Notes: generated by a model not told the origin, from the sequence alone. DNA of 64,000 nt from Raillietiella orientalis (GCA_036172245.1 JAYWIR010000011.1:1054001-1118000), one strand, 5' to 3'. Shown: positions 11,371 through 35,450, numbered from the stretch's first letter. Made by a program: numbers and translations.

Positions 11371-11800
11371 TGATGGAAATCCTTCCTTTTCTGTCTTCGC
11401 AGTTCCTCAACACGGTTCCACGCCACCCGGGGGTGGGTAATTCTTCAATATAGGGGGTACCCCGGGAGGGGTCTGCCCTATGAATCCAGGAAAGGCTCGG
11501 AGTCCATTCCTCTCACGCCGGGGGAGGGATCCCTGGAAATGGAGATCGCCTCCACCCTGGTTGTCTCCGAAGGGGAATCCAGAAGGGAATCCTTCCTTAT
11601 CCTCTCCGGAGAACACCCGGGGGGTCCAGGGATTTATTCTTTCTTCTCTGAAGAGAACCTAGAACGGACGGCTTTTGAAATTCAGGACTCAGCTCTCCCG
11701 AAGGGATCGGTTCGCTTCTCTGCACTCCCTGGAAAGTGGTGGCGACACACCTACTCCATCAGTACGACGCGGAGGGTCTCCCCGGAATGGGAGGTCCGCT
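11370..11800 (-). mobile_element. Internal fragment of the tRNA-derived SINE family
   Basis: Near-identical to the reverse complement of 50560-50800 (CTATGAATCCAGGAAAGGCTCGGAGTCC, GGTTGTCTCCGAAGGGGAA). Confidence 0.8.
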
Positions 11801-12219
11801 CATTCACAACCCTATTAATTTAGCCAACATTCTGTTATGCTTACAATTATTCTTGAAAAATTCCCTATCTCTGCTGAACTTACATAGGAATTTCTTAATA
11901 TGTATTTCACTAATTAATCATCTACTTTAGGATTGACTCCTAACTTTATTCTTGAATATGCATTTCCTTCTCGTTTATACCTTGATCGGCACCTACTTAC
12001 CCTGCATACACTTATACAACAAACCATGATGGATAGTAATTAAGTATTTTCTTCTGTCAAAGACTTCATTATTTTTTCTCTTGAATCTTCACTATTGAGA
12101 CTTGTTCACATTTTTCCCTTTATTCATTTCTTATCCCATTTCGATTGTTCTCACTCTATTCTAGCTGTGACAATAGTTGCTAACTTCCAACATCACAACA
12201 AAATATCTTTATCTTGCAG

Positions 12220-15200: not shown

Positions 15201-15490
15201 GAAATACTTTGGGCACATGATAAAAGATCAGGAAACAATAAGGTTATATGATACAGAACTATGAAACATAAGTCCTATTTGCATATGTGCATCAGCATAT
15301 AAGAATGATTTATGGAAAGCATGTGTATTTCAAAAACTTTGACATGCATGAAAAACAATATGAAAAACCTGTTAATACCATTGTTTGATAGAATTATGTT
15401 TCTTGGAAGAACATTAGTTCAGAAAGTATTAGATAAATTGAAATTTCTTAAATAAACTTGAAAATACGATACACGGATTAATTACAAAAC
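12220..15490 (+). pseudogene. Unidentified decayed intronless coding region, candidate EVE
   Basis: About 3.2 kb AT-rich block with protein-like runs all on the plus strand (ORFs 12852-13211, 13925-14356, 14695-14901), broken by stops and frameshifts. No splice structure and no motif I can name. Confidence 0.35.
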
Positions 15491-17287
15491 CATTTGTACA
15501 CATGTTACCTTGTTTCATAAACTATCAGGTGCTAGAACCTTCAATTACATTTTTTTTTACCTTCATGGTACCTCTTACATCATAATTCTGTAACTCATGT
15601 ATACATTAGTAAGTTTTGTATCCCTTAGTTCTTGATTTTAACAAAATTTACATTGAGAGTTTACCGTCAATGTCACCATTCATCACAGAATCGAGTCCAT
15701 GTGGTGATAGGACGATCTTATGGCAATCACGAATGTTAACTGTAAAGTATCAGTAGACTTAGTAGAATTAACAGAATAAATTGTTGGTTGGTTCTCTTAT
15801 GTTTAGAAGTGGAACTAGAAATCCAATGTCTAAAGCTTGCTTTTTAGTCTTGTCAGCTGTGGTGTTGTGGATGTGGCAACACTGACATTTTCTTTTAGAA
15901 AATACAGAAAATACGCGAGTACAGTTCCCTTTTATTAAACCACTGGATTTGTATTGTGCTGTTTTTAGTTTTACTCAAAAGGTTGCCATCTTAGTAAATT
16001 TACAATTTCCTGGACACTATGAATTTCTGAGTGACTTTGATAAGATTTCATCCTTTTTTTTTTTTTTTTTTTTACTAGGCTCAAGCTGCTTATTATATGA
16101 AGTCATATTATACTTATTTAACATCCTATAAATTTACGAATATAATATCCCATGTTCTCATCTTTGTAAAAACTAATAAACTTTTGTCACCTCATACCAA
16201 AAGCATTATGTTTACTAGATAAACTATATAAGGTAAATGTATTATTGTATCTAAATGTATTATTCAAGTATACCTATGTCTTGACTCAAGGCATAAATAA
16301 TCAATTGAACTCAGTTCAAATAAATTGCATATGGTAAGGTCATTAATTAATTGGCATAATTTAGGATGATTTTTTCGACACGAGGGAATGTTTTGATTGA
16401 AATATATGATTGAAATGATAGTCATCGAATTTGACTTGATGAAAGTTTTACAAGCTGTTTATAATGTAGCACATCCAACATTTGAAGAAGTATTACAGGA
16501 AAATAAATAGCGGTAATATTTCTGTGGTTGGGAGTACATAGAAAAGGGTGTAGGTATATCAGAAGCAAGTACAAGTAGACTTCTCACAATACTAGGAGAA
16601 ACTGGGTATAGTGAAATATTAAAAGAACTAATTAGAGTGGGTGGTAAAATTGGCAGAATAAAAAAAATTTTTGGAAACAGTAATAATTGATAATGCGGTA
16701 CAAGTTCTTATATGAAAGACCCATGTAATATAGGTTACATGGATAAATCTAGACTTTCAGAAGCCATGCTGTAGTTCAGGAGTAAGTTTGAAAAAATACA
16801 TAAGCATATAAACGTAATGTGTTAAAATTGTATGTGTAAAAGTATTAACAGTATAGGAAAATCAAAAGCAGCAACAAAGGCAATCTAGCATTTTAAAAAA
16901 TTATCTGATCGTTTCGTTAGCATTATCTCCACAAATGTCTCTTTCTAGATTAGTATCTAGGTTTTTCTTGGTTTTGAATCCTTTCTTGAGGCTTAAACGA
17001 AAAATACATTCTAGTAGCATTCCAATTTGGAATAAGTACAGCTTGGTCATATAATCAATTCCCAATTACATAATCTTAAGTATTTTCTAAATCCTTGATT
17101 ACTCTTCTTAATCAAATGGTATTCAAATTATTCTTGATATATTTTACAAAAGTCGACTATACTTAATGTTGTAGTGCATTTGCACATGTTATAAGCCTAA
17201 TAGTGAAGTGCCGTAAATCACTATCTATAGAAGGTTCACTTACTCTTTCCTTCTCTTTCTCTAATTCTTATCCATAGTTCGCCTTCG

Positions 17288-17838
17288 AAAAATCATTAAA
17301 TTATCCTAATTTACCATGATTTATCGATTTGTGGGTACTGTTTTTTCTTTTTCTTTCGTCCATTCAGATTGAAAAGCCTCTAAAGAAGGATGGACTGCTT
17401 CCCCTGTCGTTGCTCTATACACGGGCTTCAAATCAGCAATTCCTATTTTTAAACGATACATATCTTGAACTACGTAATGTAGAATACACAATGGATGCTC
17501 AATCTTAGGCCAAACTACTTCTGTAGCTTCAGATGCACTAGTTCGATTATCATCACAAGCAATTTGTGTGTCTTTTCATCCTCTATCCCTCATCTCAGTA
17601 AAATTGCCGAACCAAAATTCATCTTCAGTCTCAGTAATCCATAATTCTTGAATATGTTCCCTTCCGGATAAATCAATACTAAACGCTACGTGAACTGCTT
17701 TATTGATAGTACCCTTCCCTCCTCTCTCTCTCTACTCACTTCTACTACTAAACAGTCGAAAAATACTATAGGATATTCATTTGGTCTACTATTTCAGGCC
17801 TCAACGTCATCTGACACATCACTGATAATTTGGGAAAT
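17288..17838 (-). pseudogene. Bacterial IS256-family transposase pseudogene (endosymbiont-derived)
   Basis: ISQIISDVSDDVEA*NSRPNEYPIVFFDCLVV / INKAVHVAFSIDLSGREHIQELWITE..FWFGNFTEMRDRG..IACDN..EATEVVWPKIEHPLCILH / ADLKPVYRA..EW / QYPQIDKSW: the canonical IS256 motif order. Confidence 0.9.
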
Positions 17839-17869
17839 TAACCTCGTTCATATGGAAACAAGACTGTAA

Positions 17870-18644
17870 ATACATTGTGAAAGTGCAGGATTCATTGGCA
17901 ATCTAGCCTTGATTATTAGTCAGGAAATAATGCTTTTCACTAATAATATGTTTTGGTAATGGTATGCACTGTAAGTACTCTTGCACTACTCCAAAAAATT
18001 AGCACTAAATATAATTACTGCTATCATTCTGTCAATCATTATTAAGCCAATATCTAAGAAATTTTCAATGGAATTTATGTAAACGCCACATTAGAATTTA
18101 TATCTAGTGTTTGATCTCTAATAAAGATTCCAGTAAAACAAATCACGATAAAAAAAAAAAAAAATACACAAAGCAGCAATCGTCCTCATGCAGTGATGCA
18201 GCCGCTTAGCATTCCTACTTGACAAGAGCCTTTGAATATCCGGACTTCTAGACTCTGGAAATAAACCAAAAAGTTGTAGAAATAAAAATGACCAAATATT
18301 GTTCTTACTGAGATCAAGGGTTAACATGCCGTTGGGCAAGGGATCCATTACATTTTCCTATCCACCAATGCTAAGGGTAAGAGAGATGGCAAGCGATAGA
18401 ACTGTAGATTGAAAGACATGAGTATAGGCAATATGACACACTCCTTCAAAAGCTGAATAGAATGTTGATGTCAATGTGCTAATTATTGTTCTGCGAGAAA
18501 TAGGTATTTGAAAGAAATAATGCAAGAAATATCCCATTCCTGTGGCTCACAAACGTTCAGCTCCTGAGCACACCATTATCGAGGCGTGAGTAGCCAACGT
18601 CTACCCTCTTTACTAAGTAATCTGTTTATAATGTCGTTTAGTAC
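17870..18644 (-). pseudogene. Bacterial sodium:solute symporter (SSS/PutP-PanF-like) pseudogene, central part
   Basis: ATGMGYFLHYFFQIP..STFYSAFEGVCHIAYTHVFQ..PDIQRLLSSRNAK..MIAVIIFSAN..SARVLTVH matches SSS motifs (YSAFGG..TD..Q, QRLL, A.IMSTADS). Confidence 0.8.
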
Positions 18645-20859
18645 GTGTTGCGAGGTGAGTGTACATAAAAGAAGTGGAGCCCCGCGTCGGAGGCTGTGTG
18701 GTTAAGGCTTCCGCGAGTGACAGCATGCGTCGCGGGCTCGAATACTCTGGCAGATACTGACTCAATGGCGTCGTTGGGTTCCGAGTTTCTCCTGCAACGG
18801 CGCTGGTTGGCCTAGACATTCGGGCGTGGCACCGGCGGTGGATTAAGCTGGAGACCCCCCGATGAAGGCCGGAACAATGGGAGTCGACCTTCGGGTCCTT
18901 CCAGGAATCAAGGAGTTGGGAGTTCCGCCTCCTGTCGTGCAACGGAGAGCGGACCCCCTACACTGGAGGGACCCCTCCGGTTTGTTTAAGATGGAGCAGG
19001 AGCCTTCATAGGCACCTCTCCAGTTGTTCAAAGGAGCGGACCCCCCCTGTTGTGGGAAGACCCTCCGAGTCGTCTCCTCTTCACAGAGTGCAAGGACACA
19101 AGGGAGAGCGATTCCCTGCGGGAAGCTGCAGCGCCCCTTTTGAGTTTCGGAAGCGTCCCTTCGGGGTTCTCTTCAGAGGAGTGAACAGGAGCGGTTCCCT
19201 TGGAGAAGAAATTCCTACTAGCGGATCCCTTCCGGGTTCCCTTCGGAGAAGTTGAAATGGAGAGGACCACCCTCATTAGGGGGTTTCCCTCCGGAGAGAA
19301 TGAGCAAGGAGATTCCCTTCGGGGTTCCCCTTCGGAGACAACCAGGTTGGGAGATGCGAGCCCCAAGCGTGAGAGGAACGGACTCCGAGCCCTTCCTGGA
19401 TTCATAGAGCGGACCCCCATCCCGGGGTGCCCCCTATCCTGAAGAATTACACTGAATATTACACGCCCCCCTGCGGGTTGCCGCGGGCAGAGGGGCGGGG
19501 AAACAAAACAGTGTGTTTAATGTTTAAAAAAAAAGAGCCATGTGCGCCGCGAGGCACGCGACCGGCTCTGAGGTACTTAGCGAACCAAAAAAAAGAAAAC
19601 TCTTAAAAAAAAAAAAAAGAGCTGAAAGAAAGCGAATAAGAACAGCAAAGTCAGAAGAAAAAAGAAGAACCCAAGGATTTCCATCGTCCTAGGCCAATAG
19701 TAACGATCTCCTCGTGCGGTCGCTACTGGCCTTTAGAAAAAAAAAAAAAAAAAAAGTGGAGATGGTTGAATTTGAAATGCGTTTGCGTTCTTAACTGACT
19801 TTCTCAAATCTAAAATCATTTTTTCCAGAAATTCTTTCCGACTGGCTGATCTTCCCTTTAAGTAGTAATCAGAGATACTTCTGCCTGTTTCTAAAACTAT
19901 GTCTTTTTAGATTAAAACAAATTTTGTAAATTCAGATATACTCTTTATTAAGTATTACTGGTATACTTCTTTTTGTAAATTCAGCAAATTACTTCTTTAT
20001 GATATAAGGATAAGGAAATTTTTTACTGTCTCAAAAGAAGCAGGAATAAAAAAAAATGCTATTTATGCAGATCAATTTTTTGGTATTTCAGATTATTCTC
20101 TTTGACTGCACAGAGGTGCACTTTAAAGTTTAAGCATGAAGACTTGTGGTAAATATTTGTCAGTATATCCACAGGCATGTCTTGGGTTTCAAAACCTTTA
20201 GCACAGGTAACATTATCTGCCACTTTGTGAATGAATACTGATTGCAGGTCTATGTAATATGCTCCTGACGCTGGCAACCTACCTCAGCTTGCATATCCTT
20301 AGTAACTTTTGCTAATATCTCATTATAAGGCTCCTCATAGTGTGGCTCCGAGCTCCACCGCTTTATTCCCATGCATTAGCTTTCTATATTACACGGATGA
20401 ATCTGTAGAAGTAAAGAATCGAATCACATATACCTATTGATAAGTAGCTGACCTCTAAATGTTGCAGATGTCTCTGACGACTTCTTTTTATCAATTTTCG
20501 CTCATTATTTACTAAATACACTATAGTCAGGTGCCTGCTCCGTCCCTGCAGAATCGCAGAACCACTTTGCAGAGTTGCTATCTTTTTGGATTCATCTCGA
20601 GTTCACTGTCCGAAAGATCCTCCGCTCATTGTAAAAAAGAGGCGCTCGAATGAATGTGAAATTCCACGGTCCTCGTAATCAGCCTTACTTCCTACCATTA
20701 GAGATGCCCTCTTTATTACTTTAAAATCAAGGTTTCGGATCTTGTACACCGATTCCTGCATCTCCTAATTCATCCAGATTTACCATTGGCTCAATCAATT
20801 ATATTTACGGAATCTCCCTTTAGGCACTTGTTAGCTTCAAATATCCCACCTCACAGCAC
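18645..20859 (-). mobile_element. Complete decayed bacterial IS5/IS1182-like insertion sequence (about 1.13 kb without the nested SINE)
   Basis: Transposase from ATG at 20786 down to ~19900: EDLSDSELE, SAKWFC..APDYSVFSK, YNEILAKV..VGC, IDLQS..HKVA, HLCAVKENN, KICFNLKR. Imperfect terminal inverted repeats GTGTTGCGAGGTGAG (18645-18659) and CCCACCTCACAGCAC (20845-20859), 12/15 matching. Confidence 0.8.
18680..19755 (+). mobile_element. Full-length tRNA-derived SINE (about 1.07 kb)
   Basis: tRNA-like head with A-box (GTGGTTAAGG) and B-box (GGCTCGAATAC), 3' stem-loop, poly(A) at 19737-19755, and target-site duplication AAGTGGAG (18672-18679 / 19754-19761). Confidence 0.9.
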
Positions 20860-20869
20860 TCTCCTAATC

Positions 20870-21170
20870 ATCACGCCATCCTAAAATTGCTCCAGATGTT
20901 AGTCCCCGTTTGAGCAGGAATTTACCAGAATAGTCGCATATTCATTAAAGTGATGGTGAAAAAGCCATTCCCGATACATAAACCTTTTCTTCTACGGTAA
21001 TGGTAGAGCCAGCTTCTATAGAGCTGACAAATATAGTTGTCCTTATCACTAGATTAGGAGACTCTCTGTAATATGATGCTTGATGCTGCAGAGTTTTCAT
21101 GGTATTGGATTTATGAAAACCGATCTTTATACAAATTAAAAAGTAAACAACCGTGCCGACATGAGTTTAA
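20870..21170 (-). pseudogene. Bacterial sodium:solute symporter pseudogene, N-terminal part
   Basis: TMKTLQH..LVIRTTIFVSSIEAGSTITVEEKVYVSGMAF..LEQF matches the SSS N-terminus and joins the central part once the IS is removed. Confidence 0.65.
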
Positions 21171-21289
21171 TTTTGCTGCAATTTACCAGATAGCTATCGG
21201 TTTAAACTTGATGGAACACTGATAAAGATGTCTATCAGTTTCCACTGTGTCGTTTTGTTTCCTTGATTTCTGCTATTCGACCTCACAGG

Positions 21290-21535
21290 GATAAAGCTCG
21301 CAGCCTTTTGCCTATCTCTGAATCTCGAACTTTCTTCCTTGATATAAGGCACGATAAGGTGATGCAAAAGACGATCCAGGGTAGCAGCTGTAAGAGCAGC
21401 ATTCTGCTCCAGAGCTGCATGCCAATGGTGCAACGGCCAAAAGACAGATTGTTTGTTAACACCCTCTCAGAGCGCCGGACAACAACCCTGGATAGCATGC
21501 TTCTGTTTGAATGGTAGGTATTCTGGCTCTCTCAT
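21290..21535 (-). pseudogene. istB: IS21-family helper ATPase (IstB) C-terminal pseudogene
   Basis: EYLPFKQ / RVVVRRSERVLTNNLSFG / WHAALEQNAALTAATLDRLLHHLIVPYIKEESSRFRDRQKA, matching IstB GYLP..LTSNL.F..W..LTAALLDRLLHH....GESYR. Confidence 0.85.
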
Positions 21536-21649
21536 TAATATTCTATAAGATTAGATGTGAAACTCGAAGTTCGAAGACCCCGTCCAGTTCTCCCTGCATT
21601 AAGCCGGCATGCAGTTGAGACTATGATACCTCTGACGTTACCGAAATTG

Positions 21650-22290
21650 ACAGATAAGGTGATAAAATTGTACGAATTTCATCACGTCAGGCTTCTAACT
21701 AGGGTTAGGGACGGTACATTGGAGCGAATGGCTGTCATTCTGCAAGAAACGGAAACCACAAAGAAAAACGCTGGATCGAAAACGAAGTCAACTGAGCCCA
21801 GGGGACAGATTATTGATGGTATGCCTTAGAATATATAGGGGAACATGGAAGCATACTTTCACCCCTCCCGGGATGCCCCCTATCCTGAAGAATTTACACT
21901 GAAGAATTACACGCACCCCCTGCGGGTGGCTGCAGGTGGGTGGCGTGGAACAACAGTGTTAAAGAGCCACGTGCGCCGCGAGGCACGCGACCGGCTCTTG
22001 AGGTACTTAGAGAACCAAAAGCAAAACTTGCTTTCAGCCTGATGGTGATGTTATTACCGACACCGCACATCGCGGACCGTAGAAGATTCGTGCTAGGTCC
22101 TTCTTGCCTGCGAGGAAAAGGAGGAAAAATCCCCTGGCAGAAGAATACGGGAAGAATAAATTACTGCTGGCTAGCAACAAGGCTATAACATCTCGAAAAC
22201 TTGTTGTTGGCAAGTAGGGAAAAATACACGGAAATGGTTTAGCTCGGTACTTGATTTACTAATTGCATTTCATAATCACGAATTACAAAA
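21650..22290 (+). pseudogene. Bacterial IS5-family (ISL2/IS1381-like) transposase pseudogene, split by a SINE fragment
   Basis: RLLTRVRDGTLERMAVILQE..ALEYI..YFH (HTH part, to 21862). After the insert: VITDTAHRG..KI..LPARKRRKNPLAEE..RKWF..LLIAFHNHEL. Confidence 0.75.
21865..22020 (+). mobile_element. 3' fragment of the tRNA-derived SINE family
   Basis: Matches 50737-50910 (CCCCCTATCCTGAAGAATT..GAGCCACGTGCGCCGCGAGGCACGCGACCGGCTC..GAACCAAAA). Confidence 0.85.
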
Positions 22291-22649
22291 TCAGGGTTAT
22301 GCGAGGGGTCTATTAAATCCGCTGCAGTGATGAGTTCAGTTCCGAGACCATCCCGGACCGATCGCTTTATGCATCTTTTCTGCTCCAGATCTCATTGCCA
22401 TAGTCTCTATAGATGAAGAATGAGAAACAATTTGGTCGTCCCTCTCTTGACGGAGTTTGGAGTTTTCTCTCTTTTTTGTGGCTCGCTGAGCACTCAAGAA
22501 CCGTTCGCCTAGCGGCTCACGAAGCTCTTTCACACACTGTGCACGCGGCCCGAGGGTGCGTGTGCCACTCTTCAAGTTATACGTTCATCGCCCGGTCACT
22601 CCGGGACATTTATTGTAAAAAAAATAAAATAAAAAGCATACATTTGTAG

Positions 22650-22960
22650 GACCCTACATCGTCCAAAACTGTTCGGAACCTGTTGAGTGACCGGCACGCA
22701 GGCCGGCGAGGTTCGCCTCGGCAGCGGAAAGGCAAACAAAAACAAAAATCAAGAATAAAAAAAACTCTGGGCGGCAAGGGAAAGGATCACCGGGGGCTAG
22801 AGGGCATCCTCTGCATTCTTTCCAGGATGCCGGCAAGTTTCATCCGAGTATGTCCCAGGTGGGGTCATCTTGCTGCCGTCCTCAGGAAGCGCAGGGCGTC
22901 CCTATCGCGCCGTCCTTCCCTCGCGTAGCTCCAGATCGCCACAATCCCAAGTAGGTAGCA
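22650..22960 (-). mobile_element. 3' end remnant of a Tx1/L1-like LINE
   Basis: Reverse complement of the family end (R..WPHLG....LAGIL.RMQR) plus the 3' UTR seen at 33180-33400. Confidence 0.6.
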
Positions 22961-22974
22961 AAGAGCTGCTGTGG

Positions 22975-23565
22975 ATGTTCCAGGTGAAAGGGCCTCCGGT
23001 AACCCGGAGGGATCACCCTATGATTTCTGGAAGACTCCAGGAGAAGGAGTCCGTTCCTCTTACGCTTGGAAGGGAACCTTGAAGAGATCTTCCTCATTCT
23101 CTCCGGAGGGATCCACCATAGGAGGAGCCACTCCTCCCTCGTTTCTTCTCCGTAGAGACCCCCCGGAAAGGATCCGATCCTTGTTGACTCTGAAGAGAGC
23201 TCCGAAGGAAGCGACACTCTTCTTGTTAACACTCTGGAGAGGCAACCCTCGAGGGGGGTATCAACTAGTTTTATGGCATGGCTCCATTTTCCCAACCAGA
23301 GTAGGGAACCTCGAAAGGCTTTCTGATTCCTGGCAGCATCCCAGAGGGTCATCTTACAATCCCATCCAGTCAACGGGGCTTTCGGTTTTCATCGGTGCCG
23401 CACCGAAGCCTACAGACCCAACCAGCGTCATCCTGCAGAGGGAACTCTAAACCCACGATGCACCCCCCCTTCTCGACATCGATCCCTTCCGGGGGGGGAG
23501 GGTTCGAACCCACGACTCTTGATACCACGAGCGGAGACCGCAGTCACGCGGCCGCCAATGCGGGT
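22975..23565 (-). mobile_element. tRNA-derived SINE family copy (divergent)
   Basis: B-box GGTTCGAACC at ~23501-23510, with head and body homologous to the other copies. Confidence 0.7.
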
Positions 23566-23569
23566 GTGT

Positions 23570-24450
23570 GGTCAGGCAAACGGAGTTTGGGTCACACACT
23601 CTTCCCGTACACGGAGTGCACGGCTCCCGCTGACCTGCAGACCTCGGTTTACAAAGGGGAAACCGCCTTATGCTGCCACTTAGGGAAGTGCACGGAAACG
23701 TCCAAACACAAGGGAGGGATCTCAAGCTCCTCAGAGAACACTTTCAAGAGTTCATCCCGCCAAAGCAGTCCTTGGTTTGAATACGGAGTACGGTTGCGGC
23801 GGCCATACCCCCTCTTCGAACAAGCTACCAGTTTTCTTCACCCCAGAGAACATGCAGGAGGATCTCCACCCTGCTGGCAGGCTACCGTTGTTCCGTTGCC
23901 CACGGGGCAGGCTCCACTGCTGCGGTGGGCGTGAGGTGTCTCGGTGCTGTTCCGCGTCACCGTCTCGTTCCGGAGACTGGGGCGCATGTTGCCCAGAATG
24001 ACCAAGTCCTCCTAAGCGTATAATTTCATGGGTTTCGCTCACATCTCGGAACAGCCCCTTTCCTCCAAGAGCCGTGAGGAGATAAGGGAGAGTGCTTCTC
24101 CAGCAGGAAAGCCACTTGCCGCCTCGTGGCAGCATCGAAGGCAAGTCTTTCACAGCCGCAGCATGGTGAAGAAACGGGACAGGTTGGACGCCACATGCCA
24201 GCTAGTGTTCTGCGGTCTGCTTGCAAAGGTTGCTCTCCAGAATTGCACTCGCAGTTCGACCTGGTTCCTCGTCGGAATGTCTGTTCCTTCTTCTCGATGC
24301 GGCACCAAACGTGCCCTGGACCTCACAGGTTGCCACAGGGCTTTCCTCAACGGATGATGGGCACGGAGCTTTGTTGTACTGACGTATGGACAAAAGAAAA
24401 AGCAGGAGCCGGAGGAGCAAGGCAACCAAAGTGTTCCAAATGACGACAGG
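23570..24450 (-). mobile_element. Decayed RLE-type (Utopia/NeSL-like) non-LTR element, 3' part
   Basis: Degenerate post-RT and CCHC-region peptides, heavily frameshifted. Confidence 0.4.
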
Positions 24451-24899
24451 CGAGAAGGTAAGCACGATTTCAGGAGGCGAATTTATTATAAAATTTTGTT
24501 CATAAAATTTTAATAATGAATGCCCCGGCAAATCCGGGTGATAAATTTCAATTTGCCATCAAGAAATGACAGAAGAGCCTTCCAACTCTTTGAAGTTAGA
24601 CAGCAAGTCGGGTCTACTGACACACTCCAAAGTACTTGAAGGACCTTCCTGAATAAATCCACAGTGGCTAGCGCTTCCTTGACGCTCCAACGGAGACGAC
24701 CACAGACTTCGTCCTCCAGAAGCACGTACCCGTCCTCCGACGGACCATCTCGAGGAAACGCATCAAGCGGCGACACTGGCCGTGAACGTGGGCGGCAAGA
24801 GAAGTAGGTTGTCCTTCTATGCCGCCACGGCAGGCGAGCAAAGGAGTGAGTTTGGTAGGTTAGCCAGAGTCAACCTACACGCCTTCAGCGCCAGACCCC

Positions 24900-27100
24900 A
24901 AAGAGGATTCTGAAGTGAATAGGGCTCGGCCTATGACCCTGCCTCATTCCCATGCCACAGAGGAGACTGCCAGTATCCTACACAGGACGCAGAGGACGCT
25001 AGAGACCTAACTGTGGTCCCGATCCTATCTCAAAACGAAGTTTCTGTTCTTGTGTTTTTTGGTTTCAGAACTGTTCCACTTTCTGCCGACTGCTGAAGCA
25101 GATTTTGGTGAACATGTTGAGACAGCTGGCGCGCAAATACACCAGTCGGCACCTCCAGCGCCCGAATCTTTTGAAAATCTGCGGAAGAAGCTTTTGGTGG
25201 ACGCAGTCGAACTCTTCGCGCAAATCGACTACGACTGTCCGATACCCCGATCGCTTGCACTTGCGTGCGATCTCGTGCGTCAGCCCTCATCAGAGCATCA
25301 GCTGCTTTGCCGCCCGCCCCATGGCAACTTCCTCTTGCGACCGAAGCCATATCGGGGATTCGGATAACCGAAACCCGATAACTACACCTCTGATGTGCAA
25401 AAGCATCCCCGCTGCTCGAGAGCGGGATGTGGGATGGAGTTTCCTAGCAGAAGAGCCCCCCATCATTAGCCCGCCAAAGAAGAAAGAAGGGAGGAGCAGT
25501 CTGAGTAGGCAATAAATATTGATGAAGTCATTGAGTTCCATCTAAAGAAGAAGAGGCAGAAATAGAGAAAGCTGCCCTTCGATGCTGCTCAACAACAGCA
25601 GAGGGATCCGTATGCAATCATCTAAATGAAATTGCAGATCTAAAACGATGGAAGCTAAAAGAAGAACATGAAGAAGAGAATCAAAAGGCCATCAATTTTG
25701 AAGATTCTTCGATTGCATTTGGGTCCCAACTGTGTGGCAGTTCCATCCCCGTCTTTCTCTCAACATTGCAGGAGTAACAGAAGAGCAGGCCGCTTTTCTC
25801 CGATCGAACTCTCCCGAGTCCATGTATCTGCAGCTGGATAAACTATTGAAACAGAACGTCGGCAGCAGAATCAAGAATCCTGCGAAGGTCGTCTGTCCAT
25901 CAAGTCTGCACGGGATTCCTCGACGGTTAAACTCCGTCTCGTCAGGGTCTTTGCCTATCCCTTGGGCATGGAGTGTGCCATGAGCTAAGAGCGTCCAAAA
26001 GCTTTGGCTGGTGTAACCAAAAAAGGCTGTTTGCAGATGAGCATCCTCTCAGCAAGCTGCAGCTGGTAATAAGATTCCCGATCTCCTGGCGCCCTACGAG
26101 GAGCCCGAGGAGGGGAAGATCAAATCAAAATGATGAAGGAAGCGCATGCAACGTCTATAACCTCTACAAAATCAAACTCGCCCACCAGCAGACCAATCGA
26201 GAGACATCCCGGGGAATCATGCAAAGGTGTCCGTTGAGCTCCCTACTGTTTGATACTTCGACCTAGCCGATTCACCGCGAGATGGGGACGAGATTCAAGC
26301 CGACTCGATGCCGGTATGCTCCAGAGACCTCGCCCTAATTGCCGACTCTGCACAGAAAACGGCAGAAGAGACCCGATCCTCTCCGATGCCACGTGATGAA
26401 GCTGACTTTCTCCCTCAGCCGCAAAGAAGGGTGTTCCATCGCAAGTGCCTCAGAAAGCGCGTCCAGCAACCTTTTCAGACGAAAAATCCGACTCCCGGCA
26501 TCTGACACAATGCCCACTTGCTGTTGCGAGCCGTTTATGGAACTGAACTATATTGGAAGGCCTAGCTCAGAAAGACGAGTTCGTGACCAAGCCGCAGACC
26601 CAGGTGGTCAGCGGATTCTTCTCCTCTCCCTCCCCCGGAAGAAAAAAAAAATTAACAGTTCATTTCGAAACTTTTGAGTTCTTTGGACTCCTTCGAAACC
26701 CAGGGTTTTGGCGTCCTGAAGGAGATTAGTCGGTCCAAGATCTGCAACGTGGTCAAGCAGTTCTAATCTGCCGGCAAGTCAGCACTTCCGTAGAGGGCGA
26801 ACGCCTGGAGGCTCAAGAAACCCGAACTCGATGCCAGCGTCTCCACCCACGGATAGCTGCTTCGAGATGGCCCTTCCTTCTCCGAGCCCTGCCACTTCAC
26901 TCCGAAAGAAGAGATCACGAAAAGGATCCTCACGCCACCCACCACGCGGACCCTCCCAGAGGTGGAAGGCTGCGGGGAAATCGGGATGCAGTGCTTCTGC
27001 ACAGGAAGCGCACCGAGCATTGGAGCAAGCGAAGATCCCGACCGAAGCGGAGGCGATGGGCTCCTCCGCTGACGGAAAGTCGCAGCTGGCAATAAAGTAA
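24900..27100 (+). mobile_element. Decayed Utopia/NeSL-like non-LTR retrotransposon reverse transcriptase
   Basis: RGIMQRCPLSSLLF..PI~GVKQGCPLSGLLF..PI; SRDLALIADS~ADDLVLLADS; EITKRILTPPT~post-RT KRI.R.PT motif. Confidence 0.7.
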
Positions 27101-27399
27101 GGATGGGAGGGTGGGGAGAAGCTGCCTACGACGGGAATGTGAGGTGGGAAATCGGTTCAGCAGGAATCACTGCGGCCAGTGCCATTCTCCGCACGTTCTC
27201 TCCTTTCTTGTTCACCTGCGAACTCCGATCGTAAATCCAAGCAAGCAGCTCTCCCGAGCCTACTGTTCGGCTGTCACCTGAGTAAGCCGGGGCGTTTCTT
27301 GAAGATCAGTAAACATACAACTGTTATGGTGGAGCATGGAGCCCTACCACGGCTGATCCTACAATTGGCCAGCCGGGTTTCCGGTGCGCAGACCGGCTG

Positions 27400-29640
27400 G
27401 GCTCATCTCAGCAGCGGAGGGGAATGAAAAAGATACAAAAAGAAAAATAAAATAAAAATAAATAGATAAAAACACTCTGGAGGTCCGGGGGCCACTTCAG
27501 ATGTTCCAATGGAACGTCCAGCCCCAAAAGTCCATGAGACGGGGTACTTGAGGTCCCAACATCCGTGAGCTGTCCTTTCCTCCACTCTCCCAGTTTTTTA
27601 CTCCTTACGGAGATGTCCGCACTCACCTCCCATCCGGTCTCCAGTGTGCTGCCCACATGTTCCCTGAAGGAGGGCAGAGCTGCGGCGAGGGAGGCTCGAA
27701 CCTGCTGCTTGAGGGACAAAAGGCAATGCACAAGATAGGAAGCGCTGCAGATGCGTGACGTGGGACGGGGGCACCGCCGCCCATGCATCATTAAACCATA
27801 ACGAGCGGACGGTTTCGCTTGTTCGTGCGGAGAATCGAGACCCCCTCGCGGACTGCACTGCCAAGGCAACACGCGGCAGATAGGCAACCGCACCTGGAGG
27901 ACGGGATGTTCCGGACTCCCAGCTGCAGGCACGCGCGCATCTCTTTCTTACAGAGGGAATCGCTGTTTCGGGGATGTCGCGAGGAGCATTTTGTCTGCTT
28001 CGAAAGCGGAAAAGATTGCAGGAGCGGAAGATGCTGAGGGATGATTGCTCGCTATGTGTCTCAGCAGCGCCAGCTCACGCCGTCGTCGGGGAACAACTAG
28101 AATCGCGAGTCGAACCGTTCTGGACTCTATCCCACAGGAACCGCAGAAGTAACTTCAGTTCCCAGGGTCGCCTAGCATTGGAGCACAGCAGAAATATCTA
28201 TTGGACGCATTCACCCTCCGGGAGACCCGAAAACCAGCTTTCGTTTCCATCCGTAAGAGGAGTTCCATGGAAACGGCGTTATGACTGTCTATAAAGTGGG
28301 AGGTTTAGCGTGCAGCCCCAGTGCATGGACGCGTAAACAAGACGCGGACTGGGAACCCGGACACCACAGACCAAGATTCGATTTTTACTCGGGTTCGCAC
28401 GGGCGTTTATTTTACACAAACTTAATACAGGATGCATTGTTGTTGGACTGGTGGTCCAACCACGCCCAATTTAGAGATCTGCTGGGTCGCCGGCACGCAG
28501 ACCAGAGCGGTCCACCACGGCAGCAGGGGGGGAAGAAAATAGAAGAAAACAAAAAATAAAAATAAATACAGTTTGTGGGGTACGGGTAGGGGTCACTGTC
28601 TGCTTGTGGCAGTCCGGTCCATCCTCTCCAGGATGTCGGCAAGGTCTAACTGCATGTTTACATCCAGGTGAGGCCATCGCGTCGCCATCCTAATGAATTG
28701 GATGGCGAAATGGATGGCATCCCTATCGCTGGGGTCCTACCATTGCTTTGCTCCAGGCTGAGACGATCCCGGTAGGCAGCACAAGGCTGCAAGGGAGACC
28801 GCTGGACGAAAGGCGTCTCGAACGGAGAGGGGTTTTAAAGCGTCCCTGGAGTTGCCTGCGGGGTCCCAAGGGCCGCGGCAAAGCGTTCCCAGAAGGGCCA
28901 CAGTCCACAAACCGGTGAAGGAGGGATTCGTGTACCCGCACCTGACACAGTTCGGGTCCACACCTCCCCGCGTCCAGTGATGACGGCGGATGTTGCGTGG
29001 GAAACCCCAATGCAGTACCAACAGCTCCGACTGCTGCTACTTCATGGGGAGGGTGCAGTTGTCCATGAGCACAGGGGGCCACTTCAGGTGTTCCACCGGA
29101 AAATCAGCAGCTCGCTCCAGCGCAAGAGTCCGTGGGGCGTGTACTCAGGGTCACAGCGTCGGTGAGCTGACCCATCTTCCACTCTCCCAGTCCTTTCTCT
29201 TCCGGAGATGTGGGCTTTAACTTCCCATTTCACAGTGCTGCTGCTCAGGTGTTCCCTAAGGGAGGGCATCGCTGAAGAGAAGGAAGTTCTTCCTGCCCAC
29301 GCTCTTTTTCCGGGATCCTCCAGGATCTCTCGGAGCGTGCAACGGTTGTTGCGCACGAACAGGAACCAGAGCACCTGTTCCGTGCTTTGCTCCTAAATCC
29401 TCGCCCACGTGCGAACGGTTTCCTGTAGCCAGGCGCTACCGTTCGCTGGGAGGCAGGAGATCCATCCCGAGTTCTTCCTCGTAATACCTTCCTCGTTCAC
29501 CTCGTCCCACCTTGAGCACCCTCCGAAGCTCCAGCCCTCTCCAGCGTCAGGTGGCCGAGGCCACCGTCCCGACGCGGAGCTCACAAGTCCTTCAAGCGGA
29601 CTCGGGAGCTCCCTTTTCCCCAAAGGTGATCCTCAGGAGG
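27400..29640 (-). mobile_element. Two related decayed N-terminal (zinc-finger) fragments of RLE non-LTR elements plus a Tx1-like 3' end
   Basis: 27485-27680 and 29075-29270 are similar direct copies (..VEHLKWPP..). CVRCGY zinc-finger-like peptide at ~28940. The LINE 3'-end motif is at 28600-28720. Confidence 0.45.
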
Positions 29641-29999
29641 TCCTTCGTCCTGTTCTTACTTCTCTGGTTTGGGGAGCAAGAAAAAAAGCAGTAGCGGAGG
29701 AGGGGGGGCACAAAAGTGTTCCACACCGCGGTCCGTTCCGGCAGGTAAAATCTGCCTCCTTGGAACGAGACGATCGCCAACTCTGCTCTCTGGGCAGGCC
29801 AAGATTCGACGAAGACCGGCAGCAGCGCCGACGTCCAGAACTCGGATATCGACTGCGATCTGCGAATATCCCTCTCGGGATATCCTCCGAATATTCCGGG
29901 ATTTTTTTTCTTTCTTAGATTCAGTATCATGGGATGATTTTCTCGTCGAAAAGGCTCGTGCTCGGACTTAGATAGCCCGAGCGGCAGGATTTTCGAAAA

Positions 30000-32900
30000 C
30001 TACGAGCAGCCTAGAACAGTCCATAGAGAGGAGACTGCGGAAAGAGTGGAAAACTCCCCCCCTCCTTTATTCCTGCCTTTGGATGAAGGAACATCCCGTC
30101 GACATGGGGAGCGTCCTCATCCACGGGCACCGCACTCGGAGAGGTGAGCGTCAAAAGAAAAGCGAACTCCCGCCCCCCCAGGAGCGCACGAACCCGCCCT
30201 ACCGCCGGCATCGACTCCTTTTCCGCTCCTCTTTCGACCTCCATGGCTTCCCGCTTGGGTGTTGCGCGTGACTTTCGGGAGGGATGTTCCCCGCCTTCCT
30301 GCAAGCTGGGAAGAGCGCAGGGCTTCCGCCAATGCGCGCCTCTCCTTGCCGTCGCGCGCAACCCGCCGATGGTTCCGGAAGGCGTTGGTGATGCAGGCGG
30401 GCAAGAAGGCGGGGAGCACGGCCGAGAACAAGAGAGACTGCGCTCCCGGCAACTTGAGGATTCCGTTTTCGCGGGCTACCCTCCGGTGCTGACGTCGAGC
30501 TAACCACTCCTGATAGGCGAAGCCTCCCGTTCCAGCCTCGTCGACAAGGGTCCAAACGAAGGGGGGGGGGGGGAAATATGGCGGATTCCTGTTCGCTCTC
30601 CCGGCGAAGGCGCTCCAGTCTCATTCCCTGCAGGTTTCAGGGCGTTCGCCAGCTGTCCCCAGGCGACAGGTCGAGTTTGCCGGAGTCCGAGGGCGGAGCA
30701 GGAGAGGCTCGCGGTCCGCTCACGCTCTGCTGTTCCGTTTTTCACCCGGTCACGCAAAGGTGGCGTCTCCCCTTGGCTCTCACCCTCCTGAAAAGCGCTG
30801 GAAGCTGCGAAGGATTCGCATCCGTCTCCTCTCACGCAACCTCAGGTGAGAGCAAAAAGGAAACGCGGAATCGCCCGACCGCGTTGCTGGCGGAGAAACA
30901 CGAGTGGCCATCCCGCCACCCACTGAACAGGAATGAGTGGTGGCGGCGGGAGGAATCACTGGAAACATGGAGCCAGGGAGAAAATTGGACCCTCCCGAAC
31001 AGCAGCAACAGCACTATCATTCGGGAACCTCTCCCCTCCCCCCTGCAGAGATACCGAACGACGCTCCCCAGAGTGTGACCTTCGAGGATGCCATGGATCC
31101 CTTGCTCCATCATCGGGATCGGGAGCAAGAGCATCCTCTTGCATCGTCGGAGGTGAACTGCCGTATCTCCGGGGACTCGCCAGACCCATTGGCCGGTGGG
31201 AAGCCTTCCGCCTGGCGATCGAGGTTACTCCCAAAGTCCCCAGCTCATGATCTCCAGAGACAGATGGGATTTCCTGGGAAAGTTTTTCGTGATTCCGTGC
31301 TTCCCGGCCCACTCCTTCTCCGGTACCGGCAGACCGCCATTTTGCTGGTGCCCTGGGCACTCCTCCGAAACGAAGCACGCCGCCGCCACGGCCTCACCGA
31401 GGAGAGCGCTGAGGGATAGCGGAGTCGCTCCCGCTCAGTGCTGCTGGAACGCGGAAGGCTGCCCACCGGAGCATGGATGGGAGCGCGCATCTCGGTGGGG
31501 ACGCTTCGGTTCCACCACGTCCGTCCCTTGATAGAGATGTCCACGTCGCAAGGGCTTGCCGGCCGCCTCTTCGCTGACGCTGCCACCTATAAGCAACGGT
31601 GGCTGACAAAATGGAGGGGGGGGGCAGGAGAAAGAGGAATGCGACCGGGAGGCCTCCCGCCATCGCAGCCGTTCACACGCGAAGGACCGTAAAATGACCC
31701 GGCCCGGGTCGCGCAGGGGTCGCAAGGGAGCCTTCGAGAGCTCCCGAGCAGCAGACTAACCCAAAACCGGTGAGAACTCAGGCCCTCGGCAATTAAGTGG
31801 AGTACTGTGAGACAGGACCAATCCACTGTTCCCTATTTATTTATTTATCCACTGTCCCCTTTCTTCACTCCCTCCCTCCTTTGCCTTCACTCCTTCCTAT
31901 TTCTGTGCCCTGAGAGGGCAGAACTTTCCCGTCCTCATGGCTACGCAGGCTGATTTATTTATTTTAAACAAATGGCCCCGGTCATTTGGGATGAGATCAC
32001 GCAGGAGTTTTTCACTTTCCGGAAAAAGGCGACATGCGAACGACCGGAAAACGAGTTTCCCGGGGAAGCGAAACGGAAGTCCGTGGGAAGGGTTCACCGG
32101 CACGCAGGTCGGTCGGTCTCGGGGGTAGTCCGGAGAGCAAGAAAAGGGGGACAATAAAAAAATAAATGAATGGGTGGAAAGGAGGGCAGCCACAGGGAGT
32201 CCTTTGGTGAGGAGCCCCCCCTTCCTGCTGCCGGTGCCGGACGCAAGCCGATCCCCCGCCGGCGACTTTCCGCTCGCCGGCGGCGGTACCTCCGGCAGAG
32301 TGACACGCGGATTCTCGGAGGAACCGGAGTCACTTGGAAAGTGGGCACCCAGGTTTTCCCACGGTCTGCCGCCGCCGTTGCCGCCTCGTCGTCGGCACGG
32401 GAAACTGCAAGAGGATGCCCCGCAGCAGCAAGCGGTTCCTTTTCTTTTTCTTTTCTTTTCTTTTTTTATAAACAAACGCCTCAGGACCCTGACACTGCGG
32501 GAGAATCTTCAAGAAGCCTTGAGTCTCTTCCAATCGCCCTCTTGGGATGATTCGCGCTGCGAATGTGGCACCTGCTCCCCCTCCTTACTTCTGGAAGGAT
32601 TCCCGGAGAACCCTCTGCTACTGCTGGGGTCGGGCGGAACACGTCAAGGCGCGGTACCACCACGCTCCTTCGCCCTCCCTCTCCAGTACCGGCAGACCGC
32701 TGCCATCTTGCTGGCGCAACGGGCACTCTCCCAAAACGAGGTACGCCGCCATCGCACCTCATCGGGAGAAGGGAGGGAGTGACCTTCGAGGATGCACGCC
32801 TTTCGCGCCCTGCTGCCAGGCCAGGGCACAACGACACGCTCGCCGCATTCCCTACGGGCGAGCTTTCGTCCCCCCCCCCCTTTTCCTCACCATTGGACCC

Positions 32901-34600
32901 GGGGAAGTGCGAGTTCAAACTGCAGCAAGCGCGTCGAAAGAGAGTCCTTCCCGCACCTGCTCATTGATTGTGTTGCCTTCCGTCCTTTGTTTTGCCCCGA
33001 GGGCAGCCCCAGAAACCTTCTGAAGCGCCGCTTCTTTTGCGACGCCCCCACTTTGGCCGCATCCCTAGCAGCACTGTGCTGCCCATGAGACGGAAACATG
33101 TGGCTGCACAGAGCAACGCAGGAAGCCAGGACGACAGGGACGTCATCTGTTTTGCCTTCCTCTTTATGAGGATCGCGTCAAGATGGCCTCATCTGGGAGT
33201 CCTAAAACAGGAACTTGCCGGCATCCTGGCAAGGATGCAGAGGGCGCCCCTCCAGCACCTGGGGATCCCTTCCCGAACCCTCTTGTATTTTTTCGTACAT
33301 ATTTCTTTCCCCCCCCCCCCCCCCTCCCTCCCTGCTGCCGAGCCGAACTTCGCCGGCCTGCGCGCCGGTCCTCGGCAGGTTCCCATGGTTACATTTGTAA
33401 CGTGGCGGGAAGAAGCGTCCTGCCACTTACTGACTTGTAGGTTCATTTTTTGCATAAATAAACGCCCCGGTTCAGGCAGGAGGCAATCCCCCGCTTTCCA
33501 GATGGGGTGCTTTCCGTCGCACGACCCTCCCCTCGCCTCCCCGGGGAAGCACGGACTTCTTTCTGGCGAGTGTTGCCCGGACGAACTGGTAGGTTCTTTG
33601 CCTTCCCTTCGCCTCTTCCTAGAAAGGACCTGGAAAGAGCGAGCCCGCCACCCCAGTAAGAGCACTCGTTCGGAGACCACGGCGTTTCCGACTCTCCCCT
33701 TTTTCTTTTTTTTTTTGCTTCTCTCTCCCTCTCTCTCTCTCTCCCCTTTCTGGCCTGCGCCGCAAGCGCGCCAACGCTTTCCGGCATGGCGCTTTTACGT
33801 GTTCCGCCCGACTCCAGCAACGGCAGCGGGATCTCCGGAAATCCTTCCGGAAGGAAGGGGGGGGGACGCAGGTGTCACATTCGTAGCGCAAATCACCCCA
33901 AGAGAGCGATCGGAAGACACTTAAGGCTTCTTGCAAGTTCTCCCGCCGTGTCAGACCCCCGAGGCGTTTGTTTATATAAAAGAAAAAAACAAAAAAAGGA
34001 AAGAAAACATCCAAAAAGAGGGAGCGGAGCTTCTCGTCAATCCAAAGGCAAAAAAAAGTCCAGCCGAGAGGACTGGCGAGACTCCCAGGTCAGCTCCAGG
34101 AATCGTCCGGAGCAATGGCGGGAAAGAATAAATAAATCCTTGAAAGAACCGGGACAGGAAACTCCAGGTTTGCTGCTCCAGCTCTGGAGCCTCTTCAAGA
34201 TGCTGGCGACCCCCGCGGCAACTTCCTATCTCAGCTGGGGTCACCCTGCGCGCCTTTTCAATGAAGGAGGCAGCGGCATAGGTGGCCTTCCGTTGCCCGG
34301 CTCCGGCGAGCGGCGGACCGGCCGGGAAACCGCAGACGCGGCCCGGTGCGTGCGATCACGTGGGACCCCCCTCGAGAGGGAGCAACCGATGCGGCAATTC
34401 AGCCGAACTTGTCCTCAGGATGCAAAGGCGCTGAAGCGCCAGCAGGTGCGGGAGAGGCTCGATCGGGGCTGGAGGCATTCCGATCGGACCCCTCCCCCTC
34501 GAAATCGAAGGCGGAAAGGTTTATCCCGAGGAAGACTCCAGTGGAAAAGGAGAGCCCACCTCGTGCTGTTACCTGAGGGAAAACGCGGAAGCGTCCACCA
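30000..34600. mobile_element. GC-rich cluster of decayed Tx1/L1-like LINE 3' fragments in both orientations
   Basis: Repeated YRQTA.ILL...AL..NE.RR motif (31320, 32685), YFWKDSRRTL, the family end FLFMRIASRWPHLGVLKQELAGILARMQR (33160-33260), and TTTATT..TGTCCCCT 3' UTR motifs. Confidence 0.55.
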
Positions 34601-34689
34601 CGAGGGGGAAGGAGTAGAAAGTTCTTCCGGAGGACAGGAAAGGGGGGGGGGGGAGAGGCACATCTCAAGCTCAGACCACACACGAATCA

Positions 34690-35450
34690 TTCAGTTCGTC
34701 TGGATGCGAGGAGCGGCTGCGTTGATCTTGACCAGCTCTCCCGACGGGCATCCGACGAGGAGTTTCTCCACTCCTGCAGCCGTGAAGTCGGTCTCCATCG
34801 AGCTCCCCGCGATCGCAGGATAAGAAGACCCGCCATAGTCCTTGAATGCTTCCAGTCCCCCAGCGTCTTCCTCATCTTCATTCAGATGTGAAGGATGGAA
34901 GCCGGTAACCCGGCAACCGGATCTGCAGACTTCTGCATGCAATGCTGTCATGTCCGGCGGAAGAGTTCTCTGTCCCGTTCATGAGGCGCGCGCTGCTTCT
35001 CCGACCTCATATGGCGAGAGATCGAAGAGAGAGAGAAGGGACCCACCATGCCTTTCGTCGCACTCCTGGAGCGGAGTGGGGCCTACCTGAGCCGCGGACC
35101 CAAAATTGTTCAGGAAAGCGTTCCCTCACAGTGGGAACCGGCACGTGATGTCGAGTCCCCATGCGTCCAAAAATAGATTCTTATCTCCTTTCTGCTCCGA
35201 CGCAAACTTGGAATTCCGGGGGCGTTTATCGGACCAACCTCTTTCCGTCGGGGCACCTGCCGAGGTGGTCTCACGCTGAGAGCGTCCTGGATTGGTTCCA
35301 TCATCTGGGGCAGTCGTCGTGCCCCAAGTAGGTCCCAGCGCGCAGGTTCGGATTCCGACTTTTCCTGAAGACCAGCCATCTCTTTCGCGAATTGGGAGGG
35401 GAGAGACGTGTCCCTTCTTTTCCTTTTCTGTGATGAATGGAGTTGCATGG
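34690..35450 (-). pseudogene. EVE: third orthomyxovirus NP-like fragment (N-terminal half)
   Basis: ORF 35110-35550: PIQDALSV~LIQNSLTI, RRKEVGPI~PKKTGGPI, RKEIRIYFWTHGDSTSRAG~[20 protein letters not shown]. Downstream LLILRS~ALILRG and DFTAAGVEKLLVG~DFEREGYSLVG. Confidence 0.55.

Follow-up and report, generated by a model that had tools for sequence, protein, structure and literature searches.

A short, decayed block of IS-rich Rickettsiales-type DNA in an animal contig: a probable fossil of symbiont-to-nucleus transfer

How does a series of broken bacterial genes come to lie in an animal contig, and what kind of bacterium did it come from? The question is raised by a stretch of 64 kb (referred to here as the window), in which bacterial remnants span ~15.3-22.3 kb, i.e. 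~7 kb in which every gene is broken. By homology, the remnants represent IS982, IS256, the IS21 helper IstB, a sodium:solute symporter, and two or three elements of IS5 type. An intact reading frame is found in none of them, and stops or frameshifts are present in each. They are short and truncated, with amino acid identities of 32-54% to the nearest known relatives, and the best nucleotide identity to any relative is 67%, observed for the IS256 piece. Sequence searches reveal that the nearest relatives of the island are bacterial, not eukaryotic. We consider it probable that 15.3-22.3 kb is a fossil of IS-rich intracellular Rickettsiales DNA, with closest relatives that are not Wolbachia-like, which entered an animal germ line and decayed to a functionless state. 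The features of the region are collected in Table 1.

Table 1. Bacterial remnants, host repeats and host gene located in the 64 kb window
Feature	Position	Strand	Basis
IS982-family transposase, C-terminal fragment (aa 210-286 of 286-aa relative)	15339-15564	+	PF13612, tblastn
IS5-family transposase, N-terminal (DUF772) fragment	16445-16666	+	blastx/tblastn to G151 ORF
Possible displaced IS256 C-terminal scrap (weak)	16977-17083	-	tblastn with RF_p31
IS256-family transposase pseudogene (aa 131-327 of 407)	17288-17877	-	Pfam, NCBIfam, tblastn, blastn
Sodium:solute symporter pseudogene, central part (aa ~123-279), in-frame stop	18157-18585	-	phmmer, identity to Rickettsiales proteins
Host dispersed repeat, 19-A tail	18680-19755	+	copies in window; ends read from sequence
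IS5/IS1182-like transposase pseudogene (aa 30-310 of 319), several frames	19902-20725	-	five colinear HSPs to 319-aa relative
Sodium:solute symporter pseudogene, N-terminal part (aa ~10-76)	20957-21151	-	48-49% identity, E = 4e-12 to 2e-14
IS21 helper ATPase IstB, C-terminal ~120 aa, two frames	21236-21614	-	PF01695, NF006616, tblastn
159-bp fragment of host poly(A) repeat family	21862-22020	+	79-80% identity to 19416-19590, 50732-50907
IS5-family (IS5_4-type) transposase, C-terminal fragment; weak	22035-22285	+	2 colinear HSPs
Second copy of host poly(A) repeat	50029-51080	+	87% identical, 31 kb from island copy
Host TMEM222 (RTE1-like) gene, four exons	53984-58177	-	PF05608, E = 1.3e-21

The six bacterial items which the initial annotation had placed within 17288-22290 were recovered at or near their positions, all of them broken and the last IS5 piece weak. 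The left limit of that span did not hold; the island starts at least 2 kb further left, where the IS982 (15339-15564) and N-terminal IS5 (16445-16666) fragments are situated. When the whole 64 kb window was compared by blastx with Rickettsiales ORFs at E ≤ 0.01, with G022 represented by 1.2 of its 1.88 Mb, all nine non-overlapping matches fell within 15339-21148, a clustering that exceeds chance. None of the 111 frames of at least 125 aa outside the island in the 64 kb window matched Pfam, and no tRNA or Rfam match was found anywhere in it.

The IS256 piece carries a single in-frame TGA and a frameshift. It matches PF00872 in Pfam with E = 8.3e-6 (one piece at 25.4 bits, cut-off 21) and NF033543 in NCBIfam on two pieces with E = 1.7e-5 and 3.3e-5, these two scoring 23-24 bits (cut-off 150). 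Homology is clear from local tblastn, in which a Tisiphia-type IS256 aligns over aa 131-327 of 407 (sum E = 2.5e-43), and blastn with a G022 copy gives 67.3% nucleotide identity over 511 nt; a word-index protein search with the piece as query returned no match. The amino acid identity is 52-54% to Rickettsia/Tisiphia copies as against 38% to a Cardinium copy. The possible C-terminal scrap at 16977-17083 produces two short HSPs (57-58% identity, E = 0.005 in the 64 kb window) with RF_p31, a transposase piece of R. felis pRF.

The symporter was identified by phmmer, with a best E of 1.1e-18 and 110 matches at E ≤ 1e-3 among 1.84 billion representatives, and PF00474 is present in 19 of the 20 top matches scanned. 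The read-through frame of the piece itself has no match to Pfam (SSF, PF00474) at E ≤ 1, and in NCBIfam it reaches TIGR03648 at E = 7.6e-4 only. Judged from its sequence, the piece is a decayed relative and not a scoring member of PF00474, its homology being shown indirectly through phmmer and the domains of its relatives. The central part is 42-44% identical to Lariskella-type, Midichloria-type and G246 proteins, and the N-terminal part 48-49% identical to Midichloria-type and G246 proteins; for the symporter and a Cytophagales MAG, the value is 24%. Among 20 matches looked up, the five named by organism are all Rickettsiales, namely Lariskella, Cyrtobacter, the Rickettsia endosymbiont of Argas persicus, a Rickettsiaceae bacterium, and a Rickettsiales endosymbiont of Peranema. 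We also note that 19736-19906(-), with the motif DYYLKGRS, was considered as the symporter N-terminus and rejected; this stretch forms part of the C-terminal region of the IS5/IS1182-like element, and the symporter N-terminus proper lies at 20957-21151. Two kinds of donor had been suggested at the outset, and the identities of IS256 and the symporter uphold the Rickettsiales while speaking against Cardinium/Amoebophilus.

The remaining insertion sequences were traced mainly through bacterial relatives. The IS982 fragment matches PF13612 in Pfam (E = 2.5e-4) and, by tblastn with a G022 ORF that itself matches NF033520 (5.4e-61), gives two HSPs at 43-45% identity (E = 3.7e-9). The N-terminal IS5 fragment is 46% identical over 74 aa (E = 1e-13 to 2e-16) to a G151 ORF with matches to NF033578 (IS5, 1.3e-28) and PF05598 (9e-15). 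The IS5/IS1182-like piece is recognized from five colinear HSPs (sum E = 2.65e-18) to a 319-aa relative present in ~48 copies in G022. This relative contains PF05598 and PF01609, and its best NCBIfam models are IS1182 and IS5_4, both with scores under the cut-offs (139.9 vs 270 and 120.3 vs 140, respectively). Inverted terminal repeats were searched for in the IS5/IS1182-like element and none was convincing, and neither Pfam nor NCBIfam matched the read-through frames of 19764-21200 and 22021-22420. IstB matches PF01695 in Pfam over its C-terminal 45 residues (E = 2.7e-8, 34 bits, cut-off 24.1) and NF006616 (E = 1.5e-9), and tblastn aligns aa 164-270 at 36% identity (E = 1.7e-14) together with aa 144-182 (E = 0.06); its N-terminal half, including the Walker A motif, was not recovered by tblastn of the window. 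The last IS5 piece consists of HSPs at 32% and 41% identity, with a sum E of 2e-4 when a single query of 143 aa was searched against the 64 kb window, the query being a multicopy IS5_4-type ORF of G151 that matches NF033581 (7.5e-38). The ISL2 affiliation suggested in the initial annotation would be putative. The piece was unmatched by Pfam, NCBIfam and the plasmid search. A protein search with 22021-22418(-) in five genomes found no match, the G151-type similarity being on the plus strand, and plasmid tblastn with 20606-20764, 20062-20283, 22242-22391 and the IstB piece likewise found none.

Within the Rickettsiales, the pieces lead to more than one lineage. The symporter was matched in 42 of 301 Rickettsiales genomes, IS256 in 31, and IstB in 4, and the names recorded for the exact best-matching proteins are Lariskella, Midichloria, Tisiphia, and Rickettsia endosymbionts of insects. 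No sampled genome holds all fragment types: the best symporter matches (G151, G210 and G246, which are without an IstB match) and the best IS256 and IstB matches (G057, G022, G275 and G268, whose symporter matches are weak, E = 1e-5 to 4e-4) sit in different genomes. The Rickettsiales family indicated by the symporter also differs from that indicated by the IS elements. That the best relatives of the symporter and those of IS256, IstB and the IS5/IS1182-like element belong to different genomes would be expected if several independent transfers had occurred, or if DNA from different Rickettsiales donors had landed side by side, Midichloriaceae-like for the symporter and Rickettsia/Tisiphia-like for the IS elements. 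We regard this as unlikely. All pieces are located within 7 kb and have decayed to a similar degree, and IS elements generally move between co-infecting symbionts, so that IS relatives would say little about the donor. Moreover, the Lariskella-type genome G151 combines a symporter, at least 13 IS256 copies at 47% identity, and both other IS5-type relatives, with one IS5_4 copy adjoining the symporter gene.

That the contig is animal DNA is shown by a spliced TMEM222 gene, situated 32 kb from the island, with exons at 58177-58103, 57748-57548, 54284-54156 and 54067-53984. The gene has 106 homologues, of which all named ones are metazoan or holozoan (best 75%). In a tree of 42 rows, it falls in an unresolved basal polytomy, outside the hymenopteran clade (98/98) and not within the mollusc or fish groups; the highest identity in the tree set is 64%, to a mayfly. 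From this gene, the host would be placed as metazoan only.

Host repeats are observed at 11437-11801, 18680-19755, 21862-22020 and from ~22300 onward. The copy inside the island is 1.08 kb in length, has a GC content of 54.7% compared with 33-39% in its flanks, and is bordered by an 8-bp direct repeat, AAGTGGAG, at 18672-18679 and 19754-19761, which represents a target duplication. With its dispersed copies (weaker ones occur at four further places besides the second copy listed in Table 1), 3' A-tail and target-site duplication, it has the properties of a SINE or non-autonomous poly(A) retroposon. A tRNA-like head considered for this repeat is unsupported, as ARAGORN found no tRNA, and Rfam at E ≤ 1 over 18600-19800 gave two chance-level matches, none of them to tRNA, 7SL or 5S. 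The fragment at 21862-22020 separates IstB from the last IS5 piece. Within the assembly, the bacterial pieces are therefore linked to host sequence on both sides as well as internally.

This arrangement bears on whether reads of a co-sequenced Rickettsiales symbiont were misjoined to host repeats, the island then being an assembly chimera or contamination. The join between bacterial and host DNA is known from the assembly only, a search of public sequencing runs having yielded a single run with 8% of the sampled words, and a repeat-rich region favours mis-joins. However, bacterial pieces are separated by a host repeat that carries an 8-bp duplication of its own, which is not expected of a contig from a live symbiont or of a simple chimera; together with the second repeat fragment, a chimera would require four or more mis-joins in the space of 4 kb. 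Every bacterial piece is, in addition, short, truncated, frameshifted and diverged (32-54%), and we judge a chimera to be very unlikely. Debris of eukaryotic transposons (MULE, PIF/Harbinger-like), suggested by a Pfam MULE match of E = 0.014 on one IS256 piece, is hardly credible as the source, as these pieces obtain higher scores with the bacterial models PF00872 and NF033543, 67% nucleotide identity to a Rickettsia-type IS256 is retained, the named relatives of the symporter are all Rickettsiales, and IstB and sodium:solute symporters are, to our knowledge, not components of eukaryotic transposons. The best matches to eukaryotic transposases that the initial annotation had named as evidence against its own reading were thus not observed. 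Its view of an old symbiont-to-nucleus transfer agrees with the bacterial pseudogenes, the four-exon TMEM222 gene on the contig, and the poly(A) repeat inserted between the pieces.

In the history that we propose for such a transfer, the symporter would have been split by the IS5/IS1182-like element while still in the bacterium. The block may then have entered the host in one event, by non-homologous integration, and the truncations, the frameshifts and the insertion of the poly(A) repeat would have come later, in the host. The island is without sign of function now.

Symbiont-to-nucleus transfer is an already known kind of event, for which donors other than Wolbachia are less often reported. 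The prevalence of Wolbachia-to-host nuclear insertions is stated in a preprint abstract (bioRxiv 10.64898/2026.09.16.751987). Like the Wolbachia insertions in arthropods and nematodes, the island consists of intracellular Rickettsiales DNA in an animal chromosome that has been pseudogenised and invaded by host repeats. In contrast to them, its closest relatives are Rickettsia, Tisiphia, Lariskella and Midichloria proteins, and, in contrast to recent Wolbachia insertions, it is ~7 kb of almost only IS debris and far more decayed (67% nucleotide identity at best). The same abstract reports a Rickettsia africae chromosome integrated in the genome of Amblyomma variegatum, and states that Rickettsia was previously not shown as a source of such transfers (bioRxiv 10.64898/2026.09.16.751987). 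Both cases combine the genome of an animal host with a Rickettsiales donor other than Wolbachia, but the R. africae insertion is a near-complete, recent chromosome copy, whereas the island is old, short and fragmentary.

The island also resembles the IS-rich Rickettsiales of arthropods (Rickettsia, Tisiphia and Lariskella endosymbionts) in its multicopy IS families. IS256 has at least 13 matches each in G057, G185, G207 and G151, and at least 34 identical IS5_4 ORFs are present in G151. Symporter genes are multiplied in arthropod Rickettsiales as well, with up to 8 scored matches per genome. Many IS copies are intact in those genomes, whereas none is intact in the island, which lies within animal sequence.

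A more tentative reading, which we hold to be slightly less likely than not, is that the island may be all that survives of a Rickettsiales symbiont that is extinct or has not been sampled. This symbiont would have joined a symporter of Midichloriaceae type with IS elements of Rickettsia/Tisiphia type, and its host lineage would, judging from TMEM222, lie outside Hymenoptera, molluscs and vertebrates.

Being without sign of function, the island is of use as a historical record and in genome annotation rather than for the study of a mechanism. Donors other than Wolbachia are less often documented, as the preprint abstract states for Rickettsia (bioRxiv 10.64898/2026.09.16.751987). Such remnants can give false positives in PCR or metagenomic screens of animals for Rickettsiales. 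As molecular fossils, they also document past infections and, if the sole-trace reading is true, the island could be used to date an ancient non-Wolbachia infection and to map it across the relatives of the host.

The broken bacterial genes of the island (see table) were mapped by comparing stop-to-stop frames with Pfam (42 frames within 17288..22290, the span of the initial annotation) and NCBIfam (131 frames over 14.4-22.6 kb), and by local blastx and tblastn against two Rickettsiales genomes, G151 (Lariskella-type; complete, 1,592,871 bp, 34.8% GC) and G022, of which 1.2 of 1.88 Mb was covered. The families of the relatives were assigned by NCBIfam and Pfam. Three pieces were seen directly by the two profile libraries, namely IS256, IstB and, as a weak signal, the symporter. 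Every piece is truncated and carries stops or frameshifts. When the full 64 kb was compared by blastx with the covered portion of G022 and further Rickettsiales loci, all nine non-overlapping hits (E<=0.01) lay in 15339-21148, and all four hits against G151 (E<=1e-3) fell in 16445-18585. The left border of the island lies between 11801 and 15339, and the right border near 22290-22340, at the onset of GC-rich repeats. The AT-rich island pieces are single-copy within the window. Among public sequencing runs, one alone contained any of the stretch (8% of sampled words).

Bacterial pieces, host repeat copies and host gene in the window
Feature	Position	Strand	Relation to relatives
IS982 C-terminus	15339-15564	+	aa 210-286 of 286, E=3.7e-9
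IS5 N-terminus	16445-16666	+	aa 80-153 of 158-aa open frame, 46%, E about 1e-13
IS256	17288-17877	-	aa 131-327 of 407, E=2.5e-43
Symporter, central part	18157-18585	-	aa ~123-279, 42-44%
Host repeat, full copy in island	18680-19755		GC-rich block, dispersed repeat
IS5/IS1182-like transposase	19902-20725	-	aa 30-310 of 319, five colinear HSPs, E=2.65e-18
Symporter, N-terminus	20957-21151	-	aa ~10-76, 48-49%
IstB	21236-21614	-	aa 144-270, E=1.7e-14
Host repeat, 159-bp fragment	21862-22020		between IstB and last IS5 piece
IS5_4-type end (weak)	22035-22285	+	aa 53-105 and 122-143 of 143, two HSPs, sum E=2e-4
Host repeat, second full copy	50029-51080		87% identical to island copy
Host repeat, weaker copies	43647-44157, 6975-7145, 11437-11611, 1251-1331		
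TMEM222 (RTE1-like) gene, 4 exons	58177-58103, 57748-57548, 54284-54156, 54067-53984	-	tblastn with the word-index homologues, colinear

The IS256 and istB pseudogenes named in the initial annotation are both picked up by family models: the former matches PF00872 (E=8.3e-6) and NF033543 (E=1.7e-5 and 3.3e-5), and the latter PF01695 (E=2.7e-8, 34 bits vs a cut-off of 24.1) and NF006616 (E=1.5e-9). The wording "IS5/IS1182-like" also fits, the 319-aa relative of that piece scoring best on IS1182 and IS5_4, under both cut-offs.

The symporter scored E=0.0018 against TIGR03648 over the 131 frames, which is not significant, and 7.6e-4 on the read-through frame, where Pfam SSF found nothing. Its homology to symporters is established by a phmmer search with the read-through frame 17880-18675(-) as query: 1.84 billion representatives yielded 110 hits at E<=1e-3, of which 11 reach E<=1e-10 (best, 1.1e-18); PF00474 was present in 19 of the 20 top hits scanned, many with a histidine kinase fusion. 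The same three best relatives are common to both symporter parts, so that the two parts would most simply derive from a single gene that the IS5/IS1182-like element has interrupted. At a locus of G151 (L025, G151:C1:894333-897962), an IS5_4-type ORF with at least 34 identical copies in that genome adjoins the symporter gene most closely related to the one in the window; genes of these two types lie near each other both there and in the island. Several symporter or symporter-histidine-kinase paralogues occur in many Rickettsiales genomes (as many as 8 scored matches in one genome; tandem sets occur, such as that at G031:C1:1390632-1394367), in agreement with the symporter expansion previously ascribed to symbionts.

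Among 20 looked-up symporter hits, the five named to organism are all Rickettsiales: Candidatus Lariskella arthropodorum (the best hit), Candidatus Cyrtobacter comes, a Rickettsia endosymbiont of Argas persicus, a Rickettsiaceae bacterium and a Rickettsiales endosymbiont of Peranema. The symporter piece has matches in 42 of 301 Rickettsiales genomes, with the best (G151, G210 and G246; E=1e-29 to 4e-28) holding proteins recorded under Lariskella-endosymbiont and Midichloria sp. names. IS256 is matched in 31 of the 301 at E<=1e-8, and the highest identities (54% in G057, 52% in G185 and G207, 47% in G151; at least 13 copies each) belong to proteins recorded as Rickettsia and Tisiphia endosymbiont transposases. 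IstB is matched in four of the 301 (G057, G022, G275 and G268), all with better IS256 matches, while the IS5/IS1182-like element matched ~48 copies in G022 and was faint in two of four other genomes tried. The initial annotation had also considered a Cardinium/Amoebophilus donor. Cardinium IS256 reaches 38% by local tblastn, vs 50% for R. felis (best plasmid matches: R. felis pRF 44%, Spiroplasma endosymbionts 41%, Cardinium pCher 37.5%), and the symporter of a Cytophagales MAG is only 24% identical. Judged from these sequence relationships, the donor was a Rickettsiales, the other alternative proposed. At family level the signals diverge, with the cargo gene favouring Midichloriaceae and the IS set favouring Rickettsia/Tisiphia; descent is poorly tracked by IS elements. 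At the nucleotide level, IS256 is 67.3% identical to a G022 copy over 511 nt, which fits a long-past transfer or a donor not yet sampled.

The main argument for long residence in the animal genome is the host repeat situated between the bacterial pieces. The island copy has a terminal run of 19 A's, and AAGTGGAG stands on either side of it (18672-18679 and 19754-19761); 12 of 13 flanking bases agree when the A-run is counted. The repeat contains no Pfam-detectable frame, and a tRNA-like head was looked for and not found; in behaviour the repeat resembles a non-autonomous poly(A) retroposon. The two full copies diverge by 13%. We also note that the second copy begins with a short palindrome (within 50010-50045), GCCTTAACCACAAGGCC / GGCCTTGTGGTTAAGGC, absent from the island copy, and has a ~14-bp imperfect direct repeat in its flanks (GGAT.A.TAGGGTCG).

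Blocks of 27-40% GC alternate with blocks of 50-65% across the window. Searches of the 64 kb found no tRNA genes, nothing at gathering score in Rfam, and no Pfam match (E<=0.001) among 111 open frames of at least 125 aa. The long 50-62% GC blocks at 22300-35800 and 37000-53000 contain numerous open frames (125-390 aa, in either orientation) together with several fragments from the poly(A) repeat family; they look like stop-free GC-rich repeats rather than genes. Between them, the lone 27% GC kilobase at 36000-37000 matches no protein family and no Rickettsiales ORF. The TMEM222 gene (53984-58177) is seemingly intact, with AT-rich introns of up to ~3.3 kb. PF05608 matches its exon at 57437-57787(-), inside an AT-rich block, with E=1.3e-21, and a word-index search with the exon found 106 proteins at E<=1e-5 (best, 75% identical), those named to organism being all animals except one holozoan. 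In a maximum-likelihood tree of 42 rows, the window protein joins the unresolved branches at the base of the animals; it lies outside the clade of Hymenoptera (98/98) and was not grouped within the molluscs or the fish. The host, as judged from this gene, is therefore a metazoan, be it an arthropod or another animal.

Decayed Rickettsiales-like pieces, with a host repeat between them, in an assembled animal contig support the old symbiont-to-nucleus transfer initially proposed. Insertion of bacterial DNA into the genomes of animals is a familiar phenomenon in the case of Wolbachia. For Rickettsia, a 2026 preprint describes a tick genome that contains a near-complete R. africae chromosome; according to its abstract, transfer of this kind had not previously been demonstrated for Rickettsia (10.64898/2026.09.16.751987). 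In contrast to that near-complete chromosome, the island is a small, old and non-functional case of bacterial insertion in an animal genome, from a less usual donor group.
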